Source: Patescibacteria group bacterium
Lineage (GTDB): Bacteria; Patescibacteriota; Minisyncoccia; Phycocordibacterales; UBA9973
DNA length: 64,000 bases
NCBI GenBank assembly: GCA_038063515.1
Contig: JBBTUY010000006.1
Span: forward strand, 26,505 to 90,504
Direction of reading: 5' to 3'
The translations under genes were made by a program, and so were the position numbers. The first letter of the stretch is position 1; each line of letters begins with the position of its first letter. The notes beneath the pieces are model-generated. The model ran no database searches, was not told where the DNA came from, and worked only from the letters and a program-made list of their open reading frames with translations. Below, one piece after another: positions 1 to 36,861 of this stretch.

Positions 1-1806
1 CCAGATCCTGATACTCCAGTGATAGATGTCATAACACCAAGCGGAACTTCAACATTTAAATTATCAATGTTAAAAACTTTCCCCCCTGCTATGCGTATCA
101 CGCCCTTACTCTCACGTCTCTTTTCTGGAAGCTCTATTTTTGTTTCTCCGCGGAGGTATGAGAGCGTTCTTGAATTACTTATATTCTTCTTAGCAGTTAA
201 CAATTCATCTAAATCACCTGATACAATAACCTGCCCACCATGGACTCCGGCCTTTGGCCCTATGTCTACTATGTAGTCTGAAGCATAAATAGTATCTTCA
301 TCGTGCTCTACCACCAAAATAGTATTCCCTAAATCACGTAAATTAAGAAGGGTTTTTATGAGCCTGTCATTATCCCTCTGGTGAAGTCCTATAGTAGGCT
401 CGTCTAAGACGTACAGAGCCCCTACAAGCCTAGATCCGAGCTGGGAAGCTAGACGTATGCGTTGTGCCTCGCCACCAGATAGCGTATTGGCTTTACGAGA
501 AAGCTGTAAATAATCGAGTCCTACATCGAGCATAAACTGTAGCCGTGCTTCTATCTCCTTTACCACTGGCACAGATATTTCCTTTTCTTGATCTGAGAGT
601 TTTAAATTTTTAAAAAAATCATGTGCGTCTTTTATAGAAAGAGATGCTAGGTCTAAAATATTTACTCTTTTATTTTTTTCCCCTAATTTACTTAAAAGAA
701 ATACATTTAAGGCTTCAGGTCGAAGTCTTGCTCCGTTACATGCATCACATGGCTCATCCCCCATGAAATATTTAGAGCCGAGACCATTACATACAGGGCA
801 TGCACCATAAGGTGAATTAAAAGAAAAAAGACGTGGCTCTATTTCAGGAAAAGAAAAGCCGTCATTTTTACAAGCAAACTTTGCTGACATTATGATTTCC
901 CCAGCAGAAGAATTCTTTTTTTCAGGTCCTCGGTTCTCTGGGTCCCCTACCCCAGCCAGACCATGCAAAAAAGTATTCTTCTGCTGATTTTTTCCAAAAG
1001 TAATAATTACAAGTCCATCAGACTCTATGAGGGCTCGCTCCAATGCTTCTGATAAACGCATACGAGCACCATCTTTGTCTCCCTTAAACTCATGCATTAA
1101 AAAACGATCAACCAAAACATCTATATTGTGGGCTTTATTTTTTGATAGAGTTATCTGCTCTCGCAATTTCTTCATAACTCCATCAAGCCTAATCTCAGAA
1201 AAACCTTTACCGAGCAAATCATAAAGTAACTGATAGTACTCACCCTTTCTACCTCGTACTATTGGAGAAAAAATACTGATCTCAGTTTCATCCCATTCAA
1301 CTCCCATTACTGATTTTTTATTTTTTTTACTCTTATTCTCTTTACTTAAAGTATTTATCTTGTCTAAAATAAAATTTAGAATTTCTTCATTCGAAAGTTT
1401 CTTAATTTCTTCTCCACACTGCGGACAATGCGGATGACCAATGCGAGCATACATGACACGCAGATAGTCGTATATCTCGGTGATGGTCGCCACTGTAGAG
1501 CGAGGATTATTTGACCGTGATTTCTGGTCTATAGATATAGCAGGAGAAAGACCTGTGATCTCATCCACGTCTGGCTTTGGCATTTGGTTTAAGAACTGCC
1601 TTGCATAAGAAGACAAAGACTCCACATACCTTCTCTGCCCTTCGGCAAATATTGTGTCGAATGCAAGTGAGGATTTACCTGACCCAGAGACACCTGTAAT
1701 AACCACCATTTTATTCCTTGGCATTTCTAAGCTAATATTTTTGAGGTTATGAGTTCGTGCCCCTTTAACCACTATTTTATCTATATTTTTGTCAGTTTTA
1801 CTCATA
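1..1806 (-). CDS. uvrA: Excinuclease ABC subunit A (UvrA), N-terminal ~600 codons; gene continues past the window start
   Basis: Reverse translation from 1806 gives MSKTDKNIDKIVVKGARTHNLKNISLEMPRNKMVVITGVSGSGKSSLAFDTIFAEGQRRYVESLS..., the canonical UvrA N-terminus with its first Walker A motif. Absent from the ORF track because it has no in-window stop. Confidence 0.85.
902..986 (+). repeat. GC-rich palindromic mini-element (copy K1), in-frame inside uvrA
   Basis: The core caggtcctcggttctctgggtcccctaccccagccagaccatg is flanked by the inverted arms cagcagaagaattcttttttt / aaaaaagtattcttctgctg. It adds roughly 28 codons (..LHGLAGVGDPENRGPEKK..) with no stop. Near-identical cores occur at 8201-8239 and 36520-36561. 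Confidence 0.8.
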
Positions 1807-1935
1807 AAAATAACCTGGAACGTAAGCACACCCCACTTTATTTATAGGGGGTGTATAAGAGTATTATAGCACAAAAAAGCTAGAAAGTCTTATATATTTT
1901 GAATCATTATTTAAGATTTTGTAGACGTCGAACGT

Positions 1936-4047
1936 CTACAAAGTTTTTAAACGTTCTTTTAACACTCCTATCTCATCTCTAAGTATTGCTGCAGTTTCGA
2001 AGTCGAGCTCTTTAACTGCTTTATTCATTTCCTTCTCTTTTATTTTAATTATTTTCTCATACACTAAATCATTCCTCTCACTGTCAGACATGTGCAACTT
2101 TACTTCTGTTACTCCCTTTTTCTTTGAAATTTTCATTTCATCCTTCTTTAATTCAGCAGCATATGCTTTTTTGAAAACCTCTAAATCTATAGCGAGCTCT
2201 GCATTCACAGCCTTACCGTGTTCACTTTCCAACTCTTCTGTTATATCTTTTATCTTTTTAAGTATTGTCTTTGGTGTAATGCCGTGCTTTTTATTATATG
2301 CGAGTTGAATGTCTCGGCGACGCTTTGTCTCACCCAGTGCCCGCTCCATAGAGCCAGTGAGGTTGTCAGCGTAAAGAATAACTTTTCCCTCTGAATTTCT
2401 GGCAGCACGACCTATAGTCTGAATGAGGGAGGTTTCAGAACGCAAGAAGCCTTCTTTGTCTGCATCGAGTATCCCAATCAAGGCAACTTCGGGTAAGTCG
2501 AGACCTTCGCGAAGCAAGTTCACCCCTACTAAGACATCGAAGTCCCCTTTTCTAAACTGAGTAAGGATCTTGATTCTATCCATCGTCTTTATATCACTAT
2601 GTAAGTATTCTGCTTTTATCTTTTTGTCTTTCAAATACACAGATAAATCTTCGGCCATCTTTTTAGTAAGCGTAGTAGCAAGAACTCTGAAACCCTTGCC
2701 GATAGTTTTTTCTGCCTCAGTTATAAAATCAAAAATCTGCCCCTTATAGCTAGCTTTTTCTCCTATTGGTCTTATGATTGTCTCTGGGTCTACAAGACCA
2801 GTAGGACGAATTATCTGCTCTACTATCTGCTCGCTTTCTGTACGCTCAAGCTCACTTGGTGTCGCACTTGTATAGATCACAGATTGGATGCGTTTTTTAA
2901 ATTCATCATATTTGAGAGGTCTGTTATCCTTTGCGGATGGTAAACGAAAACCATAATCCACCAGTGTCTTCTTACGAGACGCATCCCCAGCATACATACC
3001 CTGAAGTTGATGTAGTGTCACGTGTGACTCATCTATGATAGTAAGGAATCCAGTTTTAGGAAAATATGAGAGAAGTGTCTCTGGGGGCTCCCCTTCTGCC
3101 TTACCTGAGAGATGCCTAGAATAATTTTCTATGCCGTTACAGTACCCGACTTCTTTTATCATAGCCAAATCATAATTTGTTCTTCTTTTTATTCTTTCAG
3201 CTTCTAAAAGCTTGCCCTCTTTTTTGAATTTTTTTAATTGATTTTCAAGCTCACTTTTTATGACAACAAGTGCTTTTTTCTTTTTACTATCTTCGGTGAT
3301 GAAATGCTTTGCGGGAAAGATAAATATATTTTCTTCTTCACTTATAATACGTGAAGTTACCGGATCAATCTTTATTATTTTAGAAATTTTTCCTCCGAGC
3401 ATTTCGACTTGGTACATAATCTTTTCAGATACAGGCATGAATTCTACCTTAGACCCAATAGATCTAAAACTTCCAGGATTAAGGTCAGCATTTGTACGTT
3501 CAAAATGAATATTTATGAGATATTTCATGAGTGTGAGTCTGTCCATCTTCATACCAAGAGTGAGCTTTAAGTTAACCTTTTCATATTCTTCAGGACTTCC
3601 TAAACCATATATACAAGACACAGAAGCAACAATTATGACGTCAGAACGAGTGAGAAGTGCTTGAGTGCTCGCATGACGAAGCTGGTCTATTTCTTTGTTT
3701 ATAGAAGCATCCTTTTCTATATAAGTGTCGGATACAGGCATGTAGGCTTCGGGCTGATAATAATCATAGTAAGATACGAAGTAGTGCACAGCTGCATCAG
3801 GAAAAAACTGTCGAAACTCCTGAGCGAGCTGGGCAGCGAGAGTTTTATTGTGAGCTATGACGAGTGTCGGCATATTATGCTTTGCAATAACATTTGCCAT
3901 AGTAAAAGTCTTACCTGTACCCGTAGCACCGAGAAGCGTCTGTTTCTTCATCCCCTTCTCTAAACCACTAAGAAGCTTTGAAATAGCAACGGGCTGATCT
4001 CCCGCTGGCTGAAAGGGGTTATGTAAGTTAAAAATATTTTTTGACAT
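1936..4047 (-). CDS. uvrB: Excinuclease ABC subunit B (UvrB)
   Basis: 703 aa. The N-terminus QPAGDQPVAISKL..GATGTGKTFTMANVI gives the UvrB helicase motifs, and the C-terminal UVR domain is AAILRDEIGVLKERL. Confidence 0.95.
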   Translation of the reverse strand: MSKNIFNLHNPFQPAGDQPVAISKLLSGLEKGMKKQTLLGATGTGKTFTMANVIAKHNMPTLVIAHNKTLAAQLAQEFRQFFPDAAVHYFVSYYDYYQPEAYMPVSDTYIEKDASINKEIDQLRHASTQALLTRSDVIIVASVSCIYGLGSPEEYEKVNLKLTLGMKMDRLTLMKYLINIHFERTNADLNPGSFRSIGSKVEFMPVSEKIMYQVEMLGGKISKIIKIDPVTSRIISEEENIFIFPAKHFITEDSKKKKALVVIKSELENQLKKFKKEGKLLEAERIKRRTNYDLAMIKEVGYCNGIENYSRHLSGKAEGEPPETLLSYFPKTGFLTIIDESHVTLHQLQGMYAGDASRKKTLVDYGFRLPSAKDNRPLKYDEFKKRIQSVIYTSATPSELERTESEQIVEQIIRPTGLVDPETIIRPIGEKASYKGQIFDFITEAEKTIGKGFRVLATTLTKKMAEDLSVYLKDKKIKAEYLHSDIKTMDRIKILTQFRKGDFDVLVGVNLLREGLDLPEVALIGILDADKEGFLRSETSLIQTIGRAARNSEGKVILYADNLTGSMERALGETKRRRDIQLAYNKKHGITPKTILKKIKDITEELESEHGKAVNAELAIDLEVFKKAYAAELKKDEMKISKKKGVTEVKLHMSDSERNDLVYEKIIKIKEKEMNKAVKELDFETAAILRDEIGVLKERLKTL

Positions 4048-4449
4048 ATATATTACAAGAGACCTTCTGAAGTTAAATAACCATACCCATCATATACATT
4101 GTCGTATGCTTTTACAATTATCTTGTAGCTAAGAAATGAACCTACAAGAGTAATAATGAAAAAATATAAAAATGCTCTATTAAGCTTGTACATATGTATA
4201 AAGTTTATACAATAAACTCCTTTTTATCAAGACTGTGTTTTGTGGTTAGAAATTATGATGCAGTATTGAAGAAATAATGCCGATTGGCACACTACATCAA
4301 GAAAATGGTCAGATTCTGGAAATTACTCCTCAATCTGAACTTTTATCAGGAAAAGAAGTTACTACAAATATTAAGTTATTTCCAAAAAAAGAACGTCATT
4401 CTGAACAACAAGCTCAAGTAAAAAGAAGCTTTAATGCTGACTAAAAAAA

Positions 4450-4488
4450 GATACTACGAAATAAATTGTGGGATTATTTCGTAGTATC
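4450..4488 (-). terminator. Intrinsic terminator for the NUDIX gene (hairpin plus T-tract on the minus strand)
   Basis: 14-bp stem gatactacgaaata...tatttcgtagtatc, preceded on the plus strand by aaaaaaa, which is a U-tract after the hairpin on the minus strand. It overlaps the stop of the 4474..4995 CDS. Confidence 0.6.
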
Positions 4489-4995
4489 CACATAAAATTT
4501 TAAAGCCTGATATTGATGTGGAAAAATCTTCTCTGGTTGTTTTTTTAACAACTTTTTAAGTTCATCGATGCTAGCCCACATGGGATCTTTGGTTTCATCT
4601 TTTTGCATCTTTGGTTCTCCTTCAACTTCACAAATAAAAACAAAACCAAACCATAACTTTCCATCATTTTCATTAAGAACCTGCTGACACATAAATGGCT
4701 GGAAAACCATTGTTTTTTCAAACTCGTCCACCCTAAAAAATCTTTCTCGAAAAAAGTTTCGGAATGCTACTACTTTTAATCCACATTCTTCCTTTACTTC
4801 ACGTGAAACTGCGTCAAATACATTTTCATAACTATCAATACGTCCTCCGGGAATTTCTAGTAAACCTGAATATTTACGAGTAATTTTTGGCTTCCAGCGT
4901 GTTTGTAAAAACACTTTTTTAACATCGCCGTCCATTCTTTCCAATATAGCAGACACAAAAATAATTGATTCGTCTCTTTGTATTTTTTTAGGCAT
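4474..4995 (-). CDS. NUDIX family hydrolase
   Basis: 173 aa carrying the Nudix box GGRIDSYENVFDAVSREVKEECGLKV (GX5EX7REUXEEXGU pattern). Confidence 0.8.
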   Translation of the reverse strand: MPKKIQRDESIIFVSAILERMDGDVKKVFLQTRWKPKITRKYSGLLEIPGGRIDSYENVFDAVSREVKEECGLKVVAFRNFFRERFFRVDEFEKTMVFQPFMCQQVLNENDGKLWFGFVFICEVEGEPKMQKDETKDPMWASIDELKKLLKKQPEKIFPHQYQALKFYVDTTK

Positions 4996-5005
4996 ATAAA
5001 AAAAT

Positions 5006-5263
5006 TTATTTAATAATTTGTAAGACCCTGGCAGCTACACGTTCTGGTGAGATATCTGAAGCCCCTCTTTTATTTTCAGTTTCTCCATAATAAAATGAAT
5101 CTTCACTGTCTTTGAAACTTAAATCTACTAGAGCATCATTACGAATCATTTCTCTTCCGTAAGGATGAGTTACACGGAAAGTATTAGGACCAGACCAAAA
5201 TACAGAATTACTTAAACTAAACATAACATTAGGTGTTCCACACATACTTGAATAATGTCCCAA
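5006..5263 (-). CDS. Hypothetical small protein (85 aa)
   Basis: ORF sits 11 bp upstream of the NUDIX gene on the same strand. No recognisable motif. Confidence 0.3.
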   Translation of the reverse strand: MGHYSSMCGTPNVMFSLSNSVFWSGPNTFRVTHPYGREMIRNDALVDLSFKDSEDSFYYGETENKRGASDISPERVAARVLQIIK

Positions 5264-5436
5264 ACCTGTGTCTGGGGTTACGCTAAACGCAGTGTTTGTT
5301 CATTGTTTTCAAGCACTTTTCCAAAAATTATTCTTGATTCTAATATATTTACAATACTATATCATAGTTGTGTTAAGATATAAATTACATTTATTCTCAC
5401 CTTTAAATCTACTGAAAATAGGGGTTTGTCTCTTTG

Positions 5437-5509
5437 TGCGCCCGGTTGGGATCGAACCAACGACCTTATCCTTAAAAGGGATCTGCTCTACCGACTGAGC
5501 TACGGGCGC
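5437..5509 (-). tRNA. tRNA-Lys (anticodon TTT)
   Basis: Reverse complement is gcgcccgtagctcagtcggtagagcagatcccttttaaggataaggtcgttggttcgatcccaaccgggcgc. It has a cloverleaf with D-arm GCTC..GAGC, anticodon loop CTTTTAA and T-arm GGTTCGATCC. Confidence 0.85.
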
Positions 5510-5565
5510 ATTTATATATTTATATTTCTAATGAACATTTGGCTAGTAGTCAGTTGAATCCGCTA

Positions 5566-5583
5566 CGACTGAGCTACGGGCGC
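5566..5583 (-). repeat. Direct repeat of the tRNA-Lys 5' end (acceptor plus D-arm fragment)
   Basis: cgactgagctacgggcgc at 5566-5583 repeats 5492-5509 of the intact tRNA, 74 bp away. The fragment has no anticodon or T-arm. Confidence 0.5.
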
Positions 5584-5606
5584 GTAAAACTTATATTACC
5601 ATACTT

Positions 5607-6254: not shown

Positions 6255-6256
6255 AA

Positions 6257-6748: not shown

Positions 6749-6771
6749 AAGTATATTATAGCATAAATAGC

Positions 6772-9189
6772 CTATTTTACCTCACCGAAATTGTTACCTG
6801 AGCCGTAGTGCACTTCGAGTGGAATATCCGTCTTGTATTTGAGATATGATCTCTGTAAAACTCCCTCCATCGCATCTTTTATTATTTTACTCGATTTTTC
6901 AAGAACACTCTCTTCTATCTCATATACCAGCTCGTCATGAATCTGAAGTACAAGATGAACTTTGTCGAGAAGTCCTGCCTTTTTTAAGTCTTCATGAGTA
7001 TATCTAATAGCGAGCTTTATGATGTCAGCTGCTGTCCCCTGCACTGGAGCATTTATAGCTGTACGTTCTGCCATATTTTTCAAAAAAGGTATGCGGGAAT
7101 TTATATTTGGGAAATATCTTTTTCTTCCAAATAAAGTCTCGGTATATGTATTTTTTGTCGCCATAGCTTTTACATTTTCCAAATAGTCCCGTATCCCAGA
7201 AAACTGGTGAAAATAATTATCGTAAAATTTCTGCGCTTCTTCGCGTGTGCCACCAAGATTTTTCTTAAGCGCTGAGACTCCCATCCCGTACAAAATACCA
7301 AAGTTTATCACCTTTGCTTTTCGGCGCATCTCACTATCAACCTTATCTACAGGTACGCCAAATACAAAAGATGCCACTCCTGAGTGCACGTCCTTTCTAT
7401 CATAAAAAACTTGCGTCATTTTCTTATCTCCTGAGAGCATGGCTGCAACACGGAGCTCCACCTGAGAGTAATCAAAAGCTGAGAGCTTATAACCTTTTGG
7501 AGCTATGAAGCCATTACGAATACGCCTACCAAGCTCACTCTTAATAGGTAAGTTTTGTAAATTAGGATCAATAGAAGAAAATCTGCCAGTCGTCGTCGCA
7601 TTTTGTAAAAACTTAGAATGAAGCCTATTATCCTCTCCCGCCATTTGAGGGATGACGTCTATGTACGTAGAGAGAAGTTTTTGTAATTCTCTGTATGAGA
7701 GTATTTCTTTTATTATAGGGTTTGCTTCTTCGAGTTCTTCTAATACAGATACTTTAGTAGAGAAAGATCCACTCGCATTTTTCTTTTTACTTGTTTTAAT
7801 TCCCATCTTATCAAACAGAATTTCTCCTAATTGTTTTGGAGAATTTACGTTAAACTCTGCACCAGCTAATTTATATATCTTCGTACGAAGTTTTTCTAAC
7901 TCTTTATGATACTCTTTACTCAAAGTAGTGAAATAATTTTTATCTATTAAAATACCGTGATTTTCTATCTCTTTTACTATACCTATAATCGGATATTCTA
8001 TCTCTTCATAAACCTTTTCTAAATTCTTCTCTTTTAGTTTCTTGAAAATGTTTTCATAAGCGACATTAAAATCCTCGGTTTTTCCGAAAATAAAAATATC
8101 TTCTAATTTAGGATTACTAATATCTGAATTAACTATCCACAAAGCGATACTTGCTTCTTGAAGTTTTTGGTCAGGAGCCCTCGGAAGAAAGTTTTGGAGC
8201 TGGTCTGGCCGGGGTAGGGGCCCCGGAGAACCGAGGACCCGAGAAAACTTTGCTTCCGAGGGCTCCTGACTGCTGTTGTTAAAAAATATTTTAAGTCGTG
8301 CAAACAAGCTACGAAATTCGTATTGAATAAAAGTCTTTTCAATTTTCTTTAAGTCAGCAGCTTCCCAAAATGTTTTCTCTGGTATGGAGAATTTAATAGG
8401 CGCATCAATGCGTATTGTTGCAAGAGTTTTTGAAAACAAAGCTTCTTCTTCATTGTTCTTAATAAGCTCTACTATCCTTGGACTTAAGCCACTTTTCTTA
8501 AATTCACTTTCATCTTTCTTTATCTTTTTGTAAATTTCTTCGATCGTACCAAAATTTACAATTAAAGTCTCAGCTGTCTTCTCACCAATACCTTTGATAC
8601 CTATAATGTTATCAGACGGATCTCCGCGGAGGCCCTTATAGTCTGGCAAAAGTTTTGGTTTGAATTTAAATCTTTCCAACACTTTATCTTCATCATATAA
8701 AATAGTGTCGTTAATTCCCTTTTTCAAAGTGTAAACCTGCACCTTTTTACCATCTATTAACTGCATGGTATCCATGTCTCCTGAAGCAATTATTATCCTT
8801 ATAGTCTTGTCCTTATGATACAAGTGAACAATGGTTCCCAATATATCATCAGCTTCAAAACCCGGAGCGTCGTAAATAGGTATATTAAAAGCTTCAAAAA
8901 TATTTCGAGAGCTTTTAAGCTGGGAAATTAATGCTTCGTCGGCTTTTGCCCTGCCTGCCTTGTATTCTTTATAAGCTTCATGTCTAAAGGTTTTCTGAGG
9001 TAGGTCATAACAAGCCACTATGTAGTCCGGCTTTAGGTCTGTGATTATCTTCATAATCATCGTAGACAGACCGTAGAGAGCCCCTGTAGGCACGCCATCA
9101 GACGAGAGAAAGTCGGGTAAGGCATGATACGCCCTGTGTATTATCGCGTGTGCATCAAGCAAAACAAGTGTTTTAGTAGTTTTGTTCAT
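6772..9189 (-). CDS. polA: DNA polymerase I (5'-3' exonuclease plus polymerase domains; compact, 805 aa)
   Basis: The N-terminal LVLLDAHAIIHRAYHA..GFEADD gives the FEN-like 5' nuclease domain. The C-terminal motifs RRKAKVINFGILYGMG and QIHDELVYE are the family A motifs B and C. The ORF contains an in-frame 112-bp GC-rich palindromic insertion at 8169-8280. Confidence 0.9.
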   Translation of the reverse strand: MNKTTKTLVLLDAHAIIHRAYHALPDFLSSDGVPTGALYGLSTMIMKIITDLKPDYIVACYDLPQKTFRHEAYKEYKAGRAKADEALISQLKSSRNIFEAFNIPIYDAPGFEADDILGTIVHLYHKDKTIRIIIASGDMDTMQLIDGKKVQVYTLKKGINDTILYDEDKVLERFKFKPKLLPDYKGLRGDPSDNIIGIKGIGEKTAETLIVNFGTIEEIYKKIKKDESEFKKSGLSPRIVELIKNNEEEALFSKTLATIRIDAPIKFSIPEKTFWEAADLKKIEKTFIQYEFRSLFARLKIFFNNSSQEPSEAKFSRVLGSPGPLPRPDQLQNFLPRAPDQKLQEASIALWIVNSDISNPKLEDIFIFGKTEDFNVAYENIFKKLKEKNLEKVYEEIEYPIIGIVKEIENHGILIDKNYFTTLSKEYHKELEKLRTKIYKLAGAEFNVNSPKQLGEILFDKMGIKTSKKKNASGSFSTKVSVLEELEEANPIIKEILSYRELQKLLSTYIDVIPQMAGEDNRLHSKFLQNATTTGRFSSIDPNLQNLPIKSELGRRIRNGFIAPKGYKLSAFDYSQVELRVAAMLSGDKKMTQVFYDRKDVHSGVASFVFGVPVDKVDSEMRRKAKVINFGILYGMGVSALKKNLGGTREEAQKFYDNYFHQFSGIRDYLENVKAMATKNTYTETLFGRKRYFPNINSRIPFLKNMAERTAINAPVQGTAADIIKLAIRYTHEDLKKAGLLDKVHLVLQIHDELVYEIEESVLEKSSKIIKDAMEGVLQRSYLKYKTDIPLEVHYGSGNNFGEVK
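8169..8280 (-). repeat. GC-rich palindromic mini-element (copy K2, inverted orientation), in-frame inside polA
   Basis: The core tggtctggccggggtaggggccccggagaaccgaggacc is the reverse complement of the uvrA and rsmA cores. Flanking inverted arms are ggtcaggagccctcggaag / cttccgagggctcctgac. It encodes ..SSQEPSEAKFSRVLGSPGPLPRPDQLQNFLPRAPDQ.. with no stop. Confidence 0.8.
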
Positions 9190-9231
9190 TATGAAAATAA
9201 TAACACTTAATGATAAATTATAGAAACCTGG

Positions 9232-9328: not shown

Positions 9329-9371
9329 ACAGGTTTCATAATTTACCAACTTAAGCTATAATTTATCTATT

Positions 9372-11069
9372 ATGAGTGATTTTGATACAGAAAAAGAAAA
9401 TAAACAAATAGACGATATCCATAAACAAGAGGAGGAGGAGCTCGTGGCCATGCTTGCCGAGTCAAAATATGACCTCCCATACATAAACCTCTACAACACA
9501 AAAATAGACAACGAAGCCTTGAGAGCAATACCCGAAGAAGAAGCAACGAAAATGAATGTGGCGCCATTTAAACTTTTTGGTAAAAAGATTTTCATAGCTG
9601 TCCGCTCTCCCAGCCCCGAGCTTTTAAAAGAGTTAAGTGATATGGCTGAACGTAAAAATCTAACTCCAGAATTCTACATGGCAAGCAGTAGCAGTCTAGA
9701 GAAAACTTGGGATAGATATAAAGAAATTTCAATGGCTGAAAATACAAGAGTTGGAGGTCTTGATATCTCAGCAGAGATCTTACGAGATACAGCTAAGGAC
9801 ATACAGCACATAGGAGACATTGAGAAGCTAATTGCTACCACACTCAAAGAAAAAGAAACTCATAAGATCTCTCGCATCCTAGAAATAATTTTAGCAGGTG
9901 CCATAGCAGTGAAAGCCTCTGATATACACATAGAGCCAGAAAAGGAGCGTGGGAGATTGCGCCTAAGACTCGATGGAATACTCCAAGACATAATCTTTTT
10001 TGATTTAGATACATATCATTTACTGAACTCAAGAATTAAATTAATCTCACAATTAAAATTAACATCAAAAATAGCCCAAGATGGAAGATTTAATATCATC
10101 GAAAGCGATGAAGAGATAAGCATACGCGTATCCCTCATCCCTGGTGCGTACGGCGAGGCTATTGTCATGCGTATCCTTGATCCGAAATCCATCCAAGTAA
10201 ACATCGAGGAATTAGGAATAGAAAAATACCTTTTTGACATAATACAAAAAGAAATAATTAAACCAAACGGACTCATACTCGTCACAGGTCCTACAGGCTC
10301 AGGTAAAACAACGACTCTGTATGCATTCCTAAGGAAAATATATTCTCCAGAAATAAATATAATAACCATAGAAGACCCAGTCGAATACCACCTTGCAGGC
10401 ATAACCCAGACACAGACAGATGTGAAAAAGGGCTACAATTTCCCTGAAGGACTTCGCTCAGCACTTCGTCAAGATCCTGACGTCATGATGGTCGGAGAGA
10501 TACGTGATGATGAGACAGCAGAGATAGCAGTGCAATCCTCCCTCACAGGACACATGGTCTTCTCTACGCTTCATACGAACAACGCAGCTGGAGTCATCCC
10601 CCGCCTGATAGACCTCAAAGTAAATCCTAAGATATTAGTATCTGCACTTTCATTATCTATAGCTCAGAGACTCGTCCGCAAACTTTGCGCATCTTGTAAG
10701 GTTGAAAAAATATTAAATGAAGAAGAATCTAAAGTTATAAAACTCGTAATGGATAGTATTAAAGACGAAGGCAAAAGCTTGTCTAACTACAACATAAATC
10801 CTGACGCACCCATAAAAGTATTTAACGCTGTGGGTTGTGCTGTATGCAACAACATAGGGTATGTAGGAAGATTAGGAATTTTTGAAGCTATTAAAACAGA
10901 CGAAAATATAGAAAAAATAATTTTACAAAACCCAAGTGAGAGAGAAATTAAAAAGGTGGCCCGCACTCAAGGCATCCTCTCCATGCGTCAAGATGGCATA
11001 GTTAAAATCTTAAACGGCGTGACCTCTATGGCCGAGGTGCAGAGCGTGGTGGATTTATTAGAAGAATAA
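9372..11069 (+). CDS. Type II secretion/type IV pilus assembly ATPase, GspE/PilB family
   Basis: 565 aa with Walker A LVTGPTGSGKTTTLYA, Asp box, Walker B and His box (..DVMMVGEIRD..HMVFSTLHTNNA). The C-terminal tetracysteine is CASC..CAVCNNIGY. The N-terminal T2SSE_N-like domain has KYDLPYINLYN. Confidence 0.85.
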   Translation: MSDFDTEKENKQIDDIHKQEEEELVAMLAESKYDLPYINLYNTKIDNEALRAIPEEEATKMNVAPFKLFGKKIFIAVRSPSPELLKELSDMAERKNLTPEFYMASSSSLEKTWDRYKEISMAENTRVGGLDISAEILRDTAKDIQHIGDIEKLIATTLKEKETHKISRILEIILAGAIAVKASDIHIEPEKERGRLRLRLDGILQDIIFFDLDTYHLLNSRIKLISQLKLTSKIAQDGRFNIIESDEEISIRVSLIPGAYGEAIVMRILDPKSIQVNIEELGIEKYLFDIIQKEIIKPNGLILVTGPTGSGKTTTLYAFLRKIYSPEINIITIEDPVEYHLAGITQTQTDVKKGYNFPEGLRSALRQDPDVMMVGEIRDDETAEIAVQSSLTGHMVFSTLHTNNAAGVIPRLIDLKVNPKILVSALSLSIAQRLVRKLCASCKVEKILNEEESKVIKLVMDSIKDEGKSLSNYNINPDAPIKVFNAVGCAVCNNIGYVGRLGIFEAIKTDENIEKIILQNPSEREIKKVARTQGILSMRQDGIVKILNGVTSMAEVQSVVDLLEE

Positions 11070-11396: not shown

Positions 11397-12404
11397 ATGT
11401 CAACTATCATGCCCGACAATGAAACAACCGAAAAAAATGAAGATTCCTTCTTAGACCACACACTACGCCCCCAAGTGTGGGATGAATACATAGGTCAAAA
11501 ACATATAAAAGATAATGTGAAAATTCTTCTTGAAGCTGCGTCTGGCCGAGGACAAATACCAGAGCACATTTTATTCTACGGACCACCAGGACTCGGGAAA
11601 ACTACACTCGCACATTTGATAGCAAGAGAAACAGGTAGACAGATGAGGATAACTTCTGGTCCTGCGATAGAGAAAGTGGGCGACCTCGCATCCATACTCA
11701 CAAATCTCTCTAGTGGAGACATACTTTTTATAGACGAGATACATAGATTAAATAAAATGGTGGAGGAAATACTTTACCCCGCCATGGAGTCTGGTGTCCT
11801 CGACATCATCATAGGTAAAGGCCCATCTGCACGCACTATACAGCTCGACTTACCACCCTTTACGATGATAGCTGCAACGACACGCGTGGCTATGGTATCA
11901 TCTCCCCTTCGCTCCCGCTTCTCTGGAGGAGTTTTCCGTCTTGAGTTTTATTCTGATGAAGAGATAGCGCAGATCGTAGAGAGGTCTAGTAGACTTCTCG
12001 AGACAAAATTAGATAAAGAAGCATTAGAAGAAATAGCAAAAAGAAGTAGGTTTACACCCCGTACTGCAAACTATTTTTTAAAGAGGGTGCGTGACTATGC
12101 CCAAGTACACAAGAAGGACTTAGATCAAAAGACAGTGAAGGAAGCTTTAAATATGCTCGCGATAGACGACATAGGATTAAACGGAGATGACAGGAAATTT
12201 TTAGAAATTTTGATTGAAAAATTTAATGGTGGACCAGTGGGATTAAAGACCATGGGTGCTGCACTCGCAGAAGAAGAAGCTACGATAGAAGAAGTCATAG
12301 AGCCATACTTGATCCAGCTCGGACTCCTCGAACGCACAGCAAGAGGACGCATAGCGACAAAGAAAGCATACGAGCATCTCGGTTTTGATTTTATAGAAAA
12401 ATAA
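11397..12404 (+). CDS. ruvB: Holliday junction branch migration ATPase RuvB
   Basis: 335 aa. LRPQVWDEYIGQ..ILFYGPPGLGKTTLA..LFIDEIHRL are the AAA+ RuvB motifs. Confidence 0.95.
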   Translation: MSTIMPDNETTEKNEDSFLDHTLRPQVWDEYIGQKHIKDNVKILLEAASGRGQIPEHILFYGPPGLGKTTLAHLIARETGRQMRITSGPAIEKVGDLASILTNLSSGDILFIDEIHRLNKMVEEILYPAMESGVLDIIIGKGPSARTIQLDLPPFTMIAATTRVAMVSSPLRSRFSGGVFRLEFYSDEEIAQIVERSSRLLETKLDKEALEEIAKRSRFTPRTANYFLKRVRDYAQVHKKDLDQKTVKEALNMLAIDDIGLNGDDRKFLEILIEKFNGGPVGLKTMGAALAEEEATIEEVIEPYLIQLGLLERTARGRIATKKAYEHLGFDFIEK

Positions 12405-12410
12405 AAAAAA

Positions 12411-12444
12411 GGGGTGAGAGTCGTGGGGATACGACTCTCACCCC
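12411..12444 (+). other. GC-rich hairpin immediately downstream of ruvB
   Basis: ggggtgagagtcg-tggggata-cgactctcacccc is a 13-bp perfect stem. No T-tract follows on the plus strand; an A-tract precedes it. Confidence 0.4.
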
Positions 12445-12569
12445 AACAGGATGGAGAAACCTATTACAGGTTCTTCTTAACTGTATTATTAAAGGTGTAA
12501 AAATGCAAATATGTTTATCCACATATATAAACATATAAATTTTAAAAATTTATTAAAAAGCAACAAAGG

Positions 12570-12778
12570 CCAAGCTGACGAGAACGTCAGCTTGGCTCTT
12601 GGTTGGACCTCAGGATGTGTAACACATCAGCTGAGCCTAAGTTGTCTAAATCGACAACTTAGGCTCAGCTCTCCTCGGCCTCTTCCATTTCAAATGGAAG
12701 AGGCCGATCGAGGTCTCTTGGCTCGATCGGAATAACATTCATGATTTTCTCCTTTCGAACCCAAAGGGGTTCGAAAAA
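12570..12778. other. Cluster of five consecutive strong hairpins (candidate structured RNA or palindromic repeat cluster) between ruvB and ruvC
   Basis: Perfect or near-perfect stems at 12570-12595 (ccaagctgacg..cgtcagcttgg), 12630-12669 (17-bp stem gctgagcctaagttgtc..gacaacttaggctcagc), 12677-12705 (ggcctcttccattt..aaatggaagaggcc), 12705-12731 (ccgatcgag..ctcgatcgg) and 12755-12778 (ttcgaaccc..gggttcgaa). The region is GC-enriched against an AT-rich background. Confidence 0.5.
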
Positions 12779-12906
12779 ATAAATTTTAGCACCTCCCCCA
12801 ACAGTCCTAAAAGACCAGGGAGGCACTTTCAAATAAAGAAGAACATATTGAGAGAGAAAATACAAATAAAGTTATCCCCACCCCAAAGACATGCTAGACT
12901 TAAGAT

Positions 12907-13410
12907 ATGGCAAGAATTTTAGGCATAGATCCGGGATATGAGAGACTCGGTATAGCGGTTTTAGAAAAGTCCTCCTCTGCACAAGGCTACAGAAGACTAA
13001 AAGAAAAAGTTTTATTTTCTGAATGTTTTAAAACTTCGAGTAAGTTACCCTTCGAAGAGAGGCTACTTCTCATCGCAGATGAGGCAAAAAGTGTCATAGA
13101 AAAATACAAGCCAGAAATACTATCTATCGAGACTTTGTTTCTAAATACAAATCAAAAGACTGTGATGCACGTAGCCGAAGCACGAGGTGTCATCATATGT
13201 GAAGCTATGAGGGCAGGTATGAAAGTATTTGAAGCGACTCCACTCCAGATAAAGATAGCGACGACAGGTTATGGAAGAGCAGATAAAACTCAAATGATAA
13301 AAATGGTAAAGATGCTCGTAGAGATAGATGAGAGTAAAAAGTCTGATGATGAACTCGACGCTATAGCCATAGCCCTCACTGCTTTTGCGAATCTAAGATT
13401 ACAGAGTTAA
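12907..13410 (+). CDS. ruvC: Crossover junction endodeoxyribonuclease RuvC
   Basis: 167 aa with MARILGIDPGYERLGIAVLEK (catalytic Asp in IDPG) and the C-terminal DDELDAIAIALT motif. Confidence 0.9.
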   Translation: MARILGIDPGYERLGIAVLEKSSSAQGYRRLKEKVLFSECFKTSSKLPFEERLLLIADEAKSVIEKYKPEILSIETLFLNTNQKTVMHVAEARGVIICEAMRAGMKVFEATPLQIKIATTGYGRADKTQMIKMVKMLVEIDESKKSDDELDAIAIALTAFANLRLQS

Positions 13411-22547: not shown

Positions 22548-22550
22548 ATT

Positions 22551-22652: not shown

Positions 22653-22658
22653 TCTAAA

Positions 22659-24068: not shown

Positions 24069-24071
24069 AAA

Positions 24072-26089: not shown

Positions 26090-26114
26090 TTTCTAATTGT
26101 ATAACAAAAAGTGA

Positions 26115-27977: not shown

Positions 27978-27981
27978 ATAT

Positions 27982-28620: not shown

Positions 28621-28660
28621 TTATATATTGTATACTATTTTTACCTAAAAATTCTTAAAC

Positions 28661-29095: not shown

Positions 29096-29124
29096 ATTGT
29101 TTTATTTATGGTGAGCTTACTCTG

Positions 29125-29892: not shown

Positions 29893-29901
29893 TTATGTAT
29901 T

Positions 29902-30429: not shown

Positions 30430-30446
30430 ATTTTTAGCTAAATTAA

Positions 30447-32846: not shown

Positions 32847-32858
32847 TTTATTAATTTT

Positions 32859-35060
32859 CTAACTCGGTGTCCATTTATTGTTTTTTTCTATACCTAAACA
32901 TTCATCTTTAGTTAATCCTGGTATTTTAAGCACACCTATTTGGCAGATGCCACGTGTTTCTGTCGGTGTTGTTGTTGGATTTACAGTCGTGCTGTATGGT
33001 GAAGGTGTGTCTGATATTTTGTAGTCTCCTGAGCTACTGTTATATATAGCGTTACAATTTATATTGTTATTACCATAAGATGTGCAGAATACAGTTTTTT
33101 CTGTTTGGATGTTATTAAATAGACTATTCTCTCCTCCTGGGTTGGTCCATGTTTTAGCTGTTCTTTCATTCGAACACTTTATTATTAGGGTATTTTGGTA
33201 ATTCACTTTATCTTTTAAATCATCTACTACGTTTTGTGCTTCCCTAACTGTTTCATTTGTAGAAAGCTCTAATATCATTCCATTGATTCTCTCTTTTAGT
33301 CTTACCATTGTTTTTTCATTTTCAGATCCTGGTGCTGGTTGTGTTGTTATTGCACTTAAACTTCCTCTTATTGATTCTAGTTTTACTAAAGTTTGAGTTA
33401 GTGTATCTTTTCTAGCTACTAATTCGTTTACTTTTTCACTTGTGGTTTTAGTAGAAGATACTTCACTCAAGTAGCTCGGTGAACTCGGTAATTCACTTCT
33501 CATTTTATTTTTCACCCACTCTTTAAAAGAGTTGGCTGTGGCAGTGATACTGTCATTGTAGGCAGTATCTGTTGTGAATTTGCTCTGTATGTCATTGTCA
33601 AGCCTATCTTCCCATCCAACATTTGGTCCAGGTAGGCACATGTCGAGTTCTTGTGTTTTTTGTAACACTCGATCAAATAATTGTGACAATCCAAGGTTGT
33701 TTACATCAGTATTGTCTATTAATTTTAGTTCTGTATTGGCTCTAGTTATCGCATCATTTACATCTTTTTTGAAAGTAGTTAAGATTATTTCCTCATCTGG
33801 TCCTCCCCAGTTAAAGCCGGTACCACTTGTAGTATTCACTGATGGGCTACCGAGTGTATGTCCGTAGTAACTAAAATTGTCGTCATCAGTATTGTTTCCA
33901 TTACCACTTATTTTACTTGAAAGTGCGTTTAATCCATCCTTCATAAATTTATTTAAGAGCGCATCAAATATCGCAGAGAGACTGTTGCCCATAGCAGCAG
34001 CGAGTGAGGTCTGGTCGTATGGTCCAGTGATCGCTTTCATGATTTGTGCACTGACTACTGAGCCTGGAGTAGTATTTACAAGTCCACCTGGGCAACCATT
34101 TTCTGATTCCCAATTTATTCTTTCATTATCATTTTTTATACTCCATTGCAGTTTTTGTTCATCGTATGTATCATAAATTGAATTATATCTTGTATTCCAT
34201 TCGTCATTTGATTCATCTGGTCTCCTTGTCGGTACTTCAGGTTCAGTTGGTTCAGGAGTAGACGACTTAAATGTAGGCTGGTTAAATTGGTTTTTTAGAT
34301 TATTATATCGTGGGTTACTTGGACATGTCTGTGGAGACAAGAAGCCCATACCTTGTTGTAGTGTGTCTTTTACAATATCAGCTTGGTTTTGACCTGTACC
34401 TCGGAGTCTTTTTGCTAGCTCATCTTCGTACATCATCTGGAATCCAAGAGAATTGTTTTGAGGGTATTGAGTATTTAAAAGGAATCCATTCCATCCTCCA
34501 ACACTAAAGTTGTTTCTATATCTAGAAAGAAGCTGTGGATCTCTCGTCACTTGGCTTAAGCTATATTGTGCGTTCGTAGCAAACTGTTTTTTGTAGCTTT
34601 CTATTGTGTTTATGGCTGTTGACTTACCAAATGGGTATTTATTACTGTCATAACCTATGATGTTTACTAGTTTTTTGATCTCGTATTTTCCTATGTCTTT
34701 AAAAAATGCTCCTGGGCGCTCTAGGAAAAGTGGTGCTCCATGAAAGCCGGAGTTTATCCAGTTTATGGTGGCTTGAGTCATCTGTTGTAAGAGTCTGCGT
34801 GCAAAGGTACGTAGTGTTTCGCGTAATACTTCTTTAGCCCATTCTTTTATATTAATGCTTGCAGTTGTAGCACTACTAACTGATGTTGCACCAGTAAAAA
34901 ACTTAGTAAGCCATGATACTGGGGCTGTGTCGTTAACTATAGTTGCTGGAAATACTGCCTCTGTTTTTTTAGGTGTAGAAAATATAAAAATAGGTGTTAT
35001 TATTGCAATAATAACTAAGAAAGAAATTATTTTTTGATTTATTTTGTTTTTAAAATTCAT
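32859..35060 (-). CDS. Large secreted/anchored hypothetical protein (733 aa)
   Basis: N-terminal TM/signal (IISFLVIIAIITPIFIFS). Ser/Thr/Asn-rich with a Cys-containing C-terminus. No recognised domain. Confidence 0.45.
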   Translation of the reverse strand: MNFKNKINQKIISFLVIIAIITPIFIFSTPKKTEAVFPATIVNDTAPVSWLTKFFTGATSVSSATTASINIKEWAKEVLRETLRTFARRLLQQMTQATINWINSGFHGAPLFLERPGAFFKDIGKYEIKKLVNIIGYDSNKYPFGKSTAINTIESYKKQFATNAQYSLSQVTRDPQLLSRYRNNFSVGGWNGFLLNTQYPQNNSLGFQMMYEDELAKRLRGTGQNQADIVKDTLQQGMGFLSPQTCPSNPRYNNLKNQFNQPTFKSSTPEPTEPEVPTRRPDESNDEWNTRYNSIYDTYDEQKLQWSIKNDNERINWESENGCPGGLVNTTPGSVVSAQIMKAITGPYDQTSLAAAMGNSLSAIFDALLNKFMKDGLNALSSKISGNGNNTDDDNFSYYGHTLGSPSVNTTSGTGFNWGGPDEEIILTTFKKDVNDAITRANTELKLIDNTDVNNLGLSQLFDRVLQKTQELDMCLPGPNVGWEDRLDNDIQSKFTTDTAYNDSITATANSFKEWVKNKMRSELPSSPSYLSEVSSTKTTSEKVNELVARKDTLTQTLVKLESIRGSLSAITTQPAPGSENEKTMVRLKERINGMILELSTNETVREAQNVVDDLKDKVNYQNTLIIKCSNERTAKTWTNPGGENSLFNNIQTEKTVFCTSYGNNNINCNAIYNSSSGDYKISDTPSPYSTTVNPTTTPTETRGICQIGVLKIPGLTKDECLGIEKNNKWTPS

Positions 35061-35072
35061 TTTTAAAAATTT

Positions 35073-35978
35073 CTAATTACTTAATTTTTTATTTATAAGT
35101 GTTGACAACTTTTCAATGCTTACTTGTACACTTTCTGAATTTTTACTATATTGGCTTATACCACTTAATGCTACTACGATATCAGTATCATACAATCTAA
35201 TGTCGCTAATGTTTTCTGAGAGTTTCTGCATTATGTTTACAACTTCTAAATGTGAGGTAGAGAGACTCTCTGGGACACCAATACTTATTATATTTATAAT
35301 AATGTTATTTACTTGTTTTATCAGAGGATCAAGTTCTTTTAGTATAGTTACATCTACGTTTTCTTCGTCAATTACGAATTTTTGCAATACATCTAGTACT
35401 GTGTATTTTATAGGTTCTTTACTAAAAATTTTATTTAAATCGTCGTTATAATTTTTAATACTTTGGCTATTTTCCGCCTTTATTATTTTTAAGTCATTTA
35501 TTGTATAAGTCTTTCTCTGCACAGAATTTTGTACTTTTTCTGCGAGATTGCCTGCGAGTGTCTCTACTGTATTTTCATCTATCTCTCCTACTTGGTTTAA
35601 GGCTGCTATGGAGGAAAAGAGTTCTCGGGAGAGCTTGTCTGTCTCTGTTAGATTTTGCTCTTCAGTTTCATTTAGGTTTAGTTCACCAGTCGATGATATG
35701 CCTTTTCTGTCTCGTATCGTGACTTTGTCTGGCACACCTGCTACTGTCTCAGCTTTTGTCGGATCTGTGCCATACAGCCCTTCTTCCCAATCTGAGATAG
35801 TATCATTATCTGTGTCTTTGTTCACTAAATCTTCTAAAGTTTCTGTACCACTGTATACTAGGCCACTTTTTTCTATTTGATTTTTGAAAATTAAATTATT
35901 CTTTGAGAGAAAAAGTGCAAGTAGAAAAAGCACCACGAGGATGATTAAAATTATTTTCTTTTGTTTCAACCAATACAT
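35073..35978 (-). CDS. N-terminally membrane-anchored hypothetical protein (301 aa), first gene of the operon (possibly VirB8/TcpC-like by topology only)
   Basis: Single N-terminal TM (KIILIILVVLFLLALFL) followed by an acidic extracytoplasmic domain. Confidence 0.4.
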   Translation of the reverse strand: MYWLKQKKIILIILVVLFLLALFLSKNNLIFKNQIEKSGLVYSGTETLEDLVNKDTDNDTISDWEEGLYGTDPTKAETVAGVPDKVTIRDRKGISSTGELNLNETEEQNLTETDKLSRELFSSIAALNQVGEIDENTVETLAGNLAEKVQNSVQRKTYTINDLKIIKAENSQSIKNYNDDLNKIFSKEPIKYTVLDVLQKFVIDEENVDVTILKELDPLIKQVNNIIINIISIGVPESLSTSHLEVVNIMQKLSENISDIRLYDTDIVVALSGISQYSKNSESVQVSIEKLSTLINKKLSN

Positions 35979-36024
35979 GTTATGTATATTAATTGTAACA
36001 CTTTTTTAAAAAGGAAACTATATT

Positions 36025-36861
36025 TTATGTGAGTAAACTAAGGGTAATCCAGTCTTTTGGAGATAGATTTTCTGCCCTTTTATCTTTGAGATCTTCGAAA
36101 GATGAATTTTTAGATAAATTCATGCTTTTTAGGTTGCCACTGAGCTTCTTTCTTTTGTGTGCAAAGCCTAATTTTACTAATTTCCAGAAATCTTCTTCAC
36201 TTATTTTGTTTTCATAAAAAATTCTCTTAGAAATATTTTTTATGACTATCACAGATGAGTCTACTTTGGGTTGTGGGGAGAAATATCGCGCGCCCACCTT
36301 GGCCACTATTTTAGGCTCCCCGTATGCCTTTACTGATATAGAGAGCAGGCTTTCCTTTTTGTCACGGGCAACTATTCTCTGTGCTACTTCTTGCTGTACG
36401 AGGAGGACCATAGATGTCGGCTGTGTATCACCTCCTAAAAATTTCTTTAGTATTGCGCCCGTTATATTGTAGGGAATGTTTGCAATTATTTTGTAACGAA
36501 ATTTTTTCGAAGTTTTTTTCAGGTCCTCGGACCCCTCCGTCCCTATCCCAGCCAGACCATGTAAAAAACTTGAAAAAATTTCATTCACGTTAAGTTCTAG
36601 TATATCTTCTTCAATTAAAATTAATTTTTCGTCTTTAATTTCTTTTTCAAATTTTATTTTAAGTAGTTCAAAAAGGTCATGATCTTTTTCTATGGCTATG
36701 ACTTTCCCTGCTTTTTCTAAAAGTTTACTAGTGAGGGCACCTTTACCTGGACCTATCTCTAATATCAAATTATCAGGATCTATCTCTCCTGCTTTGATGA
36801 TTTTATCTAAAATAAGATTTGATTTTAAAAAATTTTGCCCCAATGATTTTTTAGCTTTCAT
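36025..36861 (-). CDS. rsmA: 16S rRNA (adenine1518/1519-N6)-dimethyltransferase RsmA/KsgA
   Basis: 278 aa with KSLGQNFL, SAM motif ILEIGPGKGALT and NIPYNI. It contains an in-frame GC-rich palindromic insertion at 36499-36581. Confidence 0.85.
   Translation of the reverse strand: MKAKKSLGQNFLKSNLILDKIIKAGEIDPDNLILEIGPGKGALTSKLLEKAGKVIAIEKDHDLFELLKIKFEKEIKDEKLILIEEDILELNVNEIFSSFLHGLAGIGTEGSEDLKKTSKKFRYKIIANIPYNITGAILKKFLGGDTQPTSMVLLVQQEVAQRIVARDKKESLLSISVKAYGEPKIVAKVGARYFSPQPKVDSSVIVIKNISKRIFYENKISEEDFWKLVKLGFAHKRKKLSGNLKSMNLSKNSSFEDLKDKRAENLSPKDWITLSLLT
36499..36581 (+). repeat. GC-rich palindromic mini-element (copy K3), in-frame inside rsmA
   Basis: The core caggtcctcggacccctccgtccctatcccagccagaccatg is flanked by the inverted arms aaattttttcgaagttttttt / aaaaaacttgaaaaaattt. 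It encodes ..FLHGLAGIGTEGSEDLKK.., similar to the peptide encoded by the uvrA copy. Confidence 0.8.

Follow-up and report, generated by a model that had tools for sequence, protein, structure and literature searches.

The stretch of DNA analysed here, hereafter the window, comprises 64,000 nucleotides (nt) of contig JBBTUY010000006.1 (positions 26,505 to 90,504 of the forward strand) of a Patescibacteria group bacterium (assembly GCA_038063515.1), and its uvrA, polA and rsmA genes each harbour a short GC-rich hairpin insert built around one common core, designated family 1 below. A search of the window with the pattern GGTCCTCGG-N(15-35)-CCAGACC returned three exact matches, at 925-962 (+), 8202-8239 (-) and 36522-36558 (+), as compared to none in 100 shuffled controls, in agreement with a first-pass annotation that had reported three GC-rich core copies in these genes. 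No further family-1 copy was detected in the window by searches with either half of the core or by blastn-short with the consensus. The GC content is approximately 35% for the window and 67-78% for the 36-nt stretches over the cores, which rank among the 15 most GC-rich 36-nt stretches of the window and are the only ones of these with long flanking inverted repeats. Each copy is contained in a long open reading frame (ORF) on the minus strand, and the host frames remain open across the copies. The copies form hairpins of 83-101 nt with the core at the tip, and the DNA folding energies of the uvrA, polA and rsmA units (-22.4, -37.0 and -19.3 kcal/mol, with z = -7.0, -8.8 and -5.6, respectively) were not equalled by any shuffled sequence. 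The earlier description of each unit as a hairpin with site-specific arms was borne out, as the inverted arms, located at 902-924/964-986 (uvrA), 8170-8195/8245-8270 (polA) and 36500-36521/36560-36581 (rsmA), differ between sites. Another candidate hairpin, at 9773-9872, was rejected as it is not GC-rich and contains no core, and it probably represents a chance occurrence.

The uvrA gene (positions 3 to 1805, minus strand) runs off the start of the window, so that its N-terminal 601 codons are represented; the translation is open, contains the Pfam domains UvrA_inter and ABC_tran, and has Geobacillus UvrA (2r6f) as its best PDB match, at E = 4.6e-120. Its family-1 insert, which like the other two was assigned by pattern match, fold and arms, spans 902 to 986 (+) and consists of a conserved unit at approximately 916-972, containing the core (925-962, C-rich strand on plus), and of site-specific arms at 902-915 and 973-986. 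Read in reverse by the host, the insert encodes the peptide QQKNTFLHGLAGVGDPENRGPEKKNSSAG. The polA gene (6772 to 9189, minus strand) specifies 5'-3' exonuclease and family A polymerase domains (Pfam, residues 7-271 and 418-803), and its insert, assigned to subfamily B of family 1, extends from 8170 to 8270 (-). In this case the C-rich strand of the core (8202-8239) is on minus, the arms are GC-rich and 26 nt long (8170-8195 and 8245-8270), and the host reads the insert forward as KFSRVLGSPGPLPRPDQLQNF within a poorly conserved interdomain linker, at approximately residues 340-374. Window PolA has approximately 80 residues between its 5'-3' exonuclease and polymerase domains, about 30 of which are the insert, as compared to approximately 130 in Taq polymerase, and the domain search detected no 3'-5' exonuclease domain in it. 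The third host, rsmA/ksgA (36025 to 36861, minus strand), encodes a 16S rRNA dimethyladenosine transferase (Pfam RrnaAD, E = 3.8e-55), and a protein identical to it (P0001) is named RsmA by NCBI; the insert (36499 to 36581, +) is a CGGA-N4-TCCG variant with its core at 36522-36558, C-rich strand on plus, and is read in reverse as EIFSSFLHGLAGIGTEGSEDLKKTSKKFR. One peptide predicted to span an insert is NGLAGVGDPENRGPEK. The open, in-frame peptides quoted in the first-pass annotation were reproduced by translation; the polA peptide, which had been called unrelated to the others, is indeed open, but its dissimilarity is due solely to the inverted orientation of the core.

A genome-wide search for the core, which had been suggested with the first-pass annotation, was performed by scanning one genome per species (185,579 species) with a 25-base pattern, and it revealed a clade-wide family occurring in both orientations with the reading frame kept. 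The 109 stretches that matched were all in metagenome-assembled genomes (MAGs) of Patescibacteria (the candidate phyla radiation, CPR), labelled Candidatus Nomurabacteria, Paceibacterota, Minisyncoccia or 'Patescibacteria group', with a few Saccharibacteria. The core was also found in further metagenome contigs, and 2.9 million viral contigs yielded no core match. The first 80 loci alone represent at least 46 species-level assemblies, single MAGs hold up to at least six strict matches, and the loci L001-L193 together with the window supply at least 119 distinct family-1 copies with a near-identical core. Family 1 is confined to one Patescibacteria clade. When the placement of 117 copies was established, 63 (approximately 54%) were located in long ORFs with the frame kept, 47 (approximately 40%) were intergenic or at gene ends, and seven were at locus edges; the earlier statement that the element resides in genes is therefore correct for only part of the family. 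The intragenic copies are read forward in 34 cases and in reverse in 29. They represent at least 17 groups of host proteins, orthologous sets of which carry the element at the same protein position: RsmA (9 copies), PolA (8), a UvrD-type helicase (11, at two sites), an HD-domain protein (6) and UvrA (2). At the gathering score, Rfam identified five tRNAs and nothing else in the whole window; with permissive settings, the uvrA copy matched microRNA hairpins alone, all below threshold. A tRNA origin of the core was considered and rejected, as the core is unlike the five tRNAs of the window and its 5-bp stem with 7-nt loop, though reminiscent of a T-arm, is devoid of the T-loop sequence.

Comparison of these copies established that it is the tip of the hairpin that is conserved. 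The core had been given as 39-43 nt long; it is present as described, but the conserved unit amounts to approximately 58 nt and reaches from a T-run to an A-run, with the form (C)TTTTT-N-TCA-GGTCCTCGG...GCCAGACC-ATTC-N-AAAAA(G). In a position table of the 119 distinct copies, conservation ends at -9 and +10 around the core and the sequence beyond is site-specific; T occupies positions -6 and -7 in 119/119 copies, with the A-run on the other side. The 58-nt unit contains no ORF of its own. Outside the core a median of 24 nt per copy are paired, as compared to 3 when the arms are swapped between copies, and the entire hairpin measures 93 nt at the median (range 72-125). The minimum pairing outside the core is 15 nt and no copy is without arms, as would be expected if the arms arose with the insertion or shortly afterwards. 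Within the core, one pair of the 5-bp stem, which closes a 7-8-nt loop, covaries (C:G in 53 copies, T:A in 49, G:C in 6 and mismatched in 3).

The inserts constitute extra sequence in protein loops. At the insert, window UvrA has approximately 31 residues where Geobacillus UvrA has 3, a surplus of approximately 28; Bacillus subtilis KsgA (6ifs) is gapped across the rsmA insert when aligned with window RsmA; and the alignment of Taq polymerase with window PolA is limited to residues 8-296 and 379-800 of the latter, leaving the insert in the unaligned linker. In an AlphaFold 2 model of window RsmA with a mean predicted local distance difference test score (pLDDT) of 84.8, insert residues 103-118 score below 50 and the insert sits between a strand at 80-83 and another at 124-128, which places it in a predicted exposed loop directly before the catalytic NIPY strand. 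The frame is kept at all rsmA loci found by tblastn. Of the six possible readings of the core, the three forward ones are all open, as are one or two in reverse, and the hosts use none that contains a stop. No coding copy breaks the frame or introduces a stop, and all of them occupy loops able to accommodate additional residues. Since removal at the RNA level would need no frame, its strict maintenance implies that the inserts would be translated, as disordered loops of roughly 25-30 residues. That these residues might instead be ancestral protein sequence, or the GC-rich cores assembly chimeras, had been raised as the main way in which the proposal could fail, and apart from the source being a metagenome-assembled genome nothing speaks in favour of it. 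The insert is missing from the characterised orthologs and from many close CPR orthologs, one nucleotide core is read in at least three frames and in both orientations, and the core turns up in dozens of assemblies and metagenomes of independent origin, including the 109 stretches from many MAG assemblies and the additional metagenome contigs. This explanation is refuted by the results and we assign it next to no probability.

The origin of the arms was apparent from a comparison of empty and occupied alleles. A protein search with window RsmA provided 120 CPR orthologs of 57-71% identity, and a metagenome scan provided the DNA of 80 further rsmA loci. Across these, the loop between DIL.F and YKIIANIPYNIT is either empty (approximately 8-12 residues), occupied by family 1 in either orientation, occupied by an internally deleted core, or filled with a quite different insert. 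The empty loci L171 and L167 read ...CAA AAA ATG GAC TGC GAA TTT TTT / GGA AAT TAT AAA, that is ...CAAAAAATGGACTGCGAATTTTTT/GGAAAT at the insertion point, whereas the occupied locus L186 reads ...CAA AAA ATG GAC TGC AAA TTT TTC (75 nt) GGA AAT TAT AAA. The 75-nt insert consists of the core followed by GAAAAATTTCATTCCATTTTTG, which is the reverse complement of the 24 upstream host bases (codons QKMDCEFF) with approximately 20 of 24 positions matching. This comparison indicates that the T-run corresponds to the two Phe codons of the host, and that the inverted copy added with the core provides both the A-run and the downstream arm; the sole direct repeat between the alleles is a 6-nt microhomology, ATTTTT. 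At L111, compared to the empty L110, and at L113 the added arm is again inverted upstream host sequence, and at L113 the palindrome extends into the conserved N-F codons of DILNF. A second protein, the UvrD-type helicase, furnishes similar cases: at L138 the left arm, GACAGGGCTGGTGTTGCTTTTG, starts from a conserved host Asp codon (GAC) and its 22 nt recur without mismatch as reverse complement in the right arm, creating a new Val before LSE, and in L138, L013 and the window the helicase arms begin at the host GAC and end in GTC. Wherever the source can be identified, the flank that was copied is the gene-upstream one. The order along the gene is thus host sequence, usually ending in a T-run, then the core, and then an inverted copy of the preceding 10-25 nt of the host; as the downstream arm is the inverted host flank, the long hairpin is built from the target itself. 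The first-pass annotation had proposed insertion into, or creation of, local foldbacks. Creation is upheld by L171/L167 versus L186 and by the helicase site, while insertion into pre-existing hairpins was rejected for the coding sites because the empty alleles have no second arm. A Y-to-F change before KIIAN, considered as a mark of overwriting by the arm, was dropped, since its occurrence in 10/109 occupied as compared to 2/71 empty alleles is too weak a difference.

Alleles turn over and the element can be found flipped in place. Relatedness of RsmA proteins was expressed as direct pairwise distances of the C-terminal part, which replaced an average-linkage ordering that was unreliable, and proteins differing by 7-11% in this part were found to carry empty, forward, reverse or other-family alleles. 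Close pairs comprise P0056 (insert) and P0085 (empty), P0003 (reverse) and P0051 (forward, with other arms), and P0013 (family 1) and P0032 (family 2, described below). Among 88 rsmA alleles 51 are empty or short, 21 are occupied by family 1 (13 forward, 8 reverse), 4 by family 2 and 1 by family 3, with 11 others, and L149 represents a scar allele left by loss of the core between short repeats. The occurrence of the element as a multi-copy, non-coding, GC-rich hairpin missing from empty alleles of close relatives accords with its earlier likening to the in-frame Rickettsia palindromic elements (RPEs). Both orientations were encountered at one site in rsmA (5 forward and 4 reverse in the first set), in uvrA (one of each) and in two other host-protein groups; the polA site, where the window copy is forward, is occupied in reverse in seven other species. 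Forward and reverse alleles of a site moreover have rare core variants in common: CCATGC in uvrA, TTTATCAGG...CCATGCTAAATTAT in the HD-domain protein, and in polA subfamily B together with a bulged C, which lies on opposite sides in gene orientation. When coding copies were inverted in place in silico, 48/69 were still free of stops, and inversion of the window copies gave the allele type of other species (FFQVLGSLGPLPQPDH for uvrA, SFGAGLAGVGAPENRGPEKTLL for polA and FFSGPRTPPSLSQPDHVKN for rsmA). This match, together with the shared variants, argues for in-place inversion rather than repeated independent insertion. In orthologous polA and rsmA copies the arms are different yet paired.

Three copies had been reported, which is correct for family 1, but a fourth hairpin insert, of a different family, was overlooked. 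It resides in a gene for a UvrD/PcrA-type helicase (38418 to 40520, minus strand; Pfam UvrD-helicase and UvrD_C), in a hotspot loop between FVATKI.EI.D and LSE.A.LYRANF that was surveyed in 56 orthologs. This family-3 insert, identified by its fold and by a core shared with other loci, occupies 116 nt (39328 to 39443, minus strand), occurs once in the window, and folds as DNA into a three-way hairpin of -43.4 kcal/mol (z = -9.3). Its outer arms pair perfectly over 16 nt, 39428-39443 (GACAGTAGTGCAGGTT on the minus strand, codons D-S-S-A-G) being matched by an inverted copy at 39328-39343, and the DSSAG host codons also precede a family-1 insert in other species. The family-3 peptide RGVSQADGPRGSAPRARGDSDP, or GSLSPRARGALPLGSSACETPR when reversed, was seen in the helicase loop of many species in both orientations, and the core is also present in both orientations at other loci. 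Family 2, absent from the window, has a core of approximately 95 nt that contains GCGACGGCGACGGACAGAGAAAATTTTCAGCAGAAAATTTT; it occupies the rsmA loop and the helicase as well as other places, and its site-specific arms are perfect in every case. Families 2 and 3 are without T-run and A-run ends and show the same arm build. At least two further core families therefore share both the build and the protein loops of family 1, and the same build around unrelated cores indicates that target-made arms are a trait of the hairpin inserts of this lineage and not of one core.

In the helicase loops of L086, L045, L116, L126 and L145, family 1 and family 2 stand side by side in one loop and together add approximately 55-60 residues to this essential helicase. 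Other insert peptides recur at both hotspots, namely FSSLRPSRITGWDPREAQNRK, NGDVAKQDILRK / SGDDAVQDIPRK and SIAQADE.SIA, in the rsmA or helicase loops of L095, L059, L061-type, L123, L142, L155, L161 and L125; these recurring types probably represent additional element families.

The interpretation that best accommodates these results, to which we give a probability of roughly 0.6, is that the elements are selfish, non-coding hairpins that owe the formation of their stems, the maintenance of pairing and the flipping to template switching during replication, a known mutational process, and that in genes persist only where they are in frame in permissive protein loops. Template-switch mutations are reported to generate perfect stems by reverse-complement insertion, extend stems, introduce multi-base compensatory changes and invert loops (PMC8794818), and the arm anatomy, the flipping and the compensatory change of arms match this description. 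In the scheme envisaged, a nascent strand ending in a T-run would copy the core from another copy, which is the least certain step and would require no transposase; the new A-run would pair with the strand's own T-run in a snap-back, the 3' end would copy back along the strand's own upstream sequence, and the strand would rejoin the template at a microhomology, for which ATTTTT is suitably placed in L186. The same process could later correct the arms against each other and flip the loop. Delivery of the core might alternatively involve a reverse transcriptase or an unknown enzyme. No host function would be required, and the inserts would be selfish sequences filtered by selection. That the readable host genes are all on one strand fits a rule set by the direction of replication. 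More tentatively, and in our judgement possible although somewhat doubtful, the inserts may belong to a class of transposase-free 'snap-back' elements that spread by template switching at microhomologies, have inverted flank duplication and self-maintaining, flipping stems as their hallmark, and through several families remodel surface loops of essential proteins across the lineage.

Several observations weigh against the template-switching interpretation. No donor-to-target event was seen directly, every case in which the copied flank could be identified is in one of two adjacent genes of the same strand, and the 'empty' alleles could be secondary deletions of the core and one arm, as the ATTTTT microhomology allows either direction. 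The core is approximately 90% or more identical across genomes in which RsmA is only 55-70% identical, a conservation that is partly due to ascertainment by the 25-base exact search pattern, as degraded cores exist at the rsmA site; it exceeds what is expected of a passive parasite and suggests a conserved trans-acting partner or function. Even allowing for the ascertainment, the near constancy of the 40-nt core in dozens of deeply diverged genomes points to some constraint or to a partner that is itself conserved. Mismatches in the outer arms are in addition biased, with 72 A.C/C.A as compared to 26 G.T/T.G when read in the C-rich orientation, although orthologous copies among these are not independent. 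The direction of this bias is the same in forward, reverse and intergenic copies, which indicates a hairpin that is more tolerant of wobble on the G-rich strand regardless of the direction of host transcription.

The obvious alternative is a miniature inverted-repeat transposable element (MITE), of which the whole hairpin with its arms was mobilised in trans by a transposase specific for terminal inverted repeats, the arms now differing through age and compensatory divergence. In favour of this reading are the small size, the non-coding nature, the multiple copies and the palindromic form of the element, together with the short inverted repeats that make up the inner ends of each of the three families; many sites are also orthologous across species, which indicates that some copies are old. 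However, the arms hold host codons that are already present in empty alleles and encode conserved residues, and they are unrelated between sites, as the median of 3 pairs on swapping attests, although the cores are nearly identical; relatives differing by approximately 7% in the C-terminal part of RsmA already have quite different arms. Direct target duplication beyond the 6-nt microhomology of L171/L186 is absent, and no transposase was found among the 16 window ORFs scanned, the sole recombinase being an Xer-like tyrosine recombinase. Transposition of complete hairpins is therefore regarded as unlikely, while a hybrid, with enzymatic movement of the core and arms made by template switching, may be entertained alongside it. 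An RNA-based route has also to be considered, whereby a hairpin RNA with an A-rich 3' end is target-primed at a nick in a T-run and the resulting cDNA snaps back and copies the flank. Self-priming from hairpins is classically associated with reverse transcriptases, a T-run stands beside every copy with an A-run opposite, the T-run in L186 is the host's own, and an RNA intermediate would ease dispersal to unlinked sites. On the other side, families 2 and 3 possess the same arms with no T-run/A-run ends, no evidence was obtained that the core is transcribed as a unit, and no reverse transcriptase was seen among the 16 window ORFs scanned, other genomes not having been searched for one. We consider such retro-insertion very improbable.

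A different kind of explanation is that the hairpin is a functional DNA or RNA element maintained by host selection, for instance a protein-binding site, a bidirectional terminator or a signal for replication or segregation, and merely tolerated in genes. The conservation of the core in at least 46 species-level genomes, the covarying pair of the internal 5-bp stem, the mismatch bias that tracks the strand of the element and not host transcription, and the many intergenic copies lying between outer A-runs and T-runs in the manner of two-way terminators would all be accounted for. Yet presence varies among close relatives, some alleles being scars or having cores with internal deletions, the same loops accept one or another of the unrelated core families, and the occurrence of either orientation at one site rules out a function in host mRNA. 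Covariation in hairpins can also result from template switching without selection (PMC8794818). A host function is accordingly thought improbable, and insertion with template-switched stems is retained as the preferred interpretation.

Among known systems, the RPEs to which the element had been likened and the GC clusters of yeast mitochondria come closest. RPEs are approximately 100-150 bp in length, and each of their families is defined by a consensus along the element. They are short non-coding palindromes of a reduced genome that are often in frame in unrelated housekeeping genes, to which they add a peptide, and that also occur in intergenic regions (PMC10969869); each is described as encoding a conserved peptide (PMC10969869). 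The elements described here resemble them in combining in-frame insertion in unrelated ORFs with intergenic copies. They differ in that only the approximately 58 nt at the hairpin tip are conserved, the stem is made from the target, one core is read in several frames and both orientations, and the host belongs to another phylum. We know of no description of in-place flipping or inverted target duplication for RPEs. The GC clusters of yeast mitochondria are likewise GC-rich palindromes in an AT-rich genome, polymorphic between strains, regarded as mobile and, in var1, in frame (PMC8811140), and the present elements share with them the GC-rich palindromic character, the optional presence between close relatives and the capacity to lie in frame. 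GC clusters terminate in AG or TAG direct repeats that are taken as target-site duplications (PMC8811140), whereas here T-run/A-run junctions are followed by an inverted copy of the flank, and the hosts are bacterial (free-living or episymbiotic) rather than organellar.

The template-switch hairpins of Monttinen and Loytynoja 2022 exhibit the same creation and extension of stems, compensatory change and loop inversion (PMC8794818), but they concern rRNA and microRNA stems with small loops and not a dispersed, conserved core of 40-100 nt that recurs at the hairpin tip of many loci, and they do not account for the spread of the core. A looser parallel is offered by the long, near-perfect inverted repeats inside translated protein-coding genes of Nematomorpha mitochondria (PMC6649704); both of their arms encode conserved parts of the protein, and they have no shared core and are not insertions. 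Here, in contrast, the whole hairpin is extra loop sequence with a family-specific core. The inserts belong to none of the RPE, GC-cluster or Nematomorpha palindrome kinds. MITEs are characterised by family-wide terminal inverted repeats and direct target duplications, and REPINs by two conserved repetitive extragenic palindromic (REP) arms in extragenic locations. The present elements are, like MITEs and REP/REPIN sequences, small, non-autonomous, hairpin-forming and multi-copy, but they have neither the family-wide arms nor the direct target duplication of fixed length of the former, and they are distinguished from REP/REPIN sequences with their REP-associated tyrosine transposase (RAYT) by arms that are not conserved and by the intragenic location of approximately 54% of copies. 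In the open literature searched, no such elements were described for CPR, Nomurabacteria, Parcubacteria or Patescibacteria, and a broader search likewise yielded no paper naming the candidate phyla radiation. The opinion of the first-pass annotation that no equivalent is established was thus sustained by both Rfam and this literature, and the insertion footprint, a conserved tip on a stem derived from the inverted target flank, is without description in the literature that could be searched.

If this interpretation is correct, elements with a conserved tip and a target-made stem would escape searches for terminal inverted repeats or direct duplications, and annotation pipelines and repeat finders do not look for such a combination. 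Template switching, a process so far inferred mostly from rRNA and microRNA stems, could be studied in a natural system through dated alleles, whether empty, occupied or flipped, across hundreds of genomes. Some lineage-specific insertions in CPR housekeeping proteins would also be explained, and the length and sequence of such insertions would be poor phylogenetic characters, because the same loop is empty, forward, reverse or of another family in near relatives.

A number of further features of the window were noted. Two direct repeats of 127 nt (46681-46807 and 48137-48263), 94% identical, bracket an ORF at 47221-48138 (+) that encodes a 305-residue tyrosine recombinase (Pfam Phage_integrase, E = 1.3e-42), and each repeat contains a GC-rich hairpin, CTCGCGGCT-CGACA-GCCGCGAG. 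The locus could represent a small integrated element or an Xer-type gene with duplicated sites, and no link between its repeats and the hairpin inserts was found. Between ruvB (11397-12404) and ruvC (12907-13410), a 500-nt intergenic stretch (12404-12907) carries five perfect or near-perfect GC-rich hairpins (12411-12444, 12564-12601, 12629-12670, 12675-12707 and 12746-12783); it has no Rfam match at the gathering score and may be an unannotated structured RNA. Finally, cumulative GC skew falls from position 1 to approximately 50-54 kb, the genes before this point being mostly on the minus strand, and then rises, a turn that could mark a replication origin or a switch in strand bias, and a cluster of four tRNAs is located at 55.0-56.3 kb.

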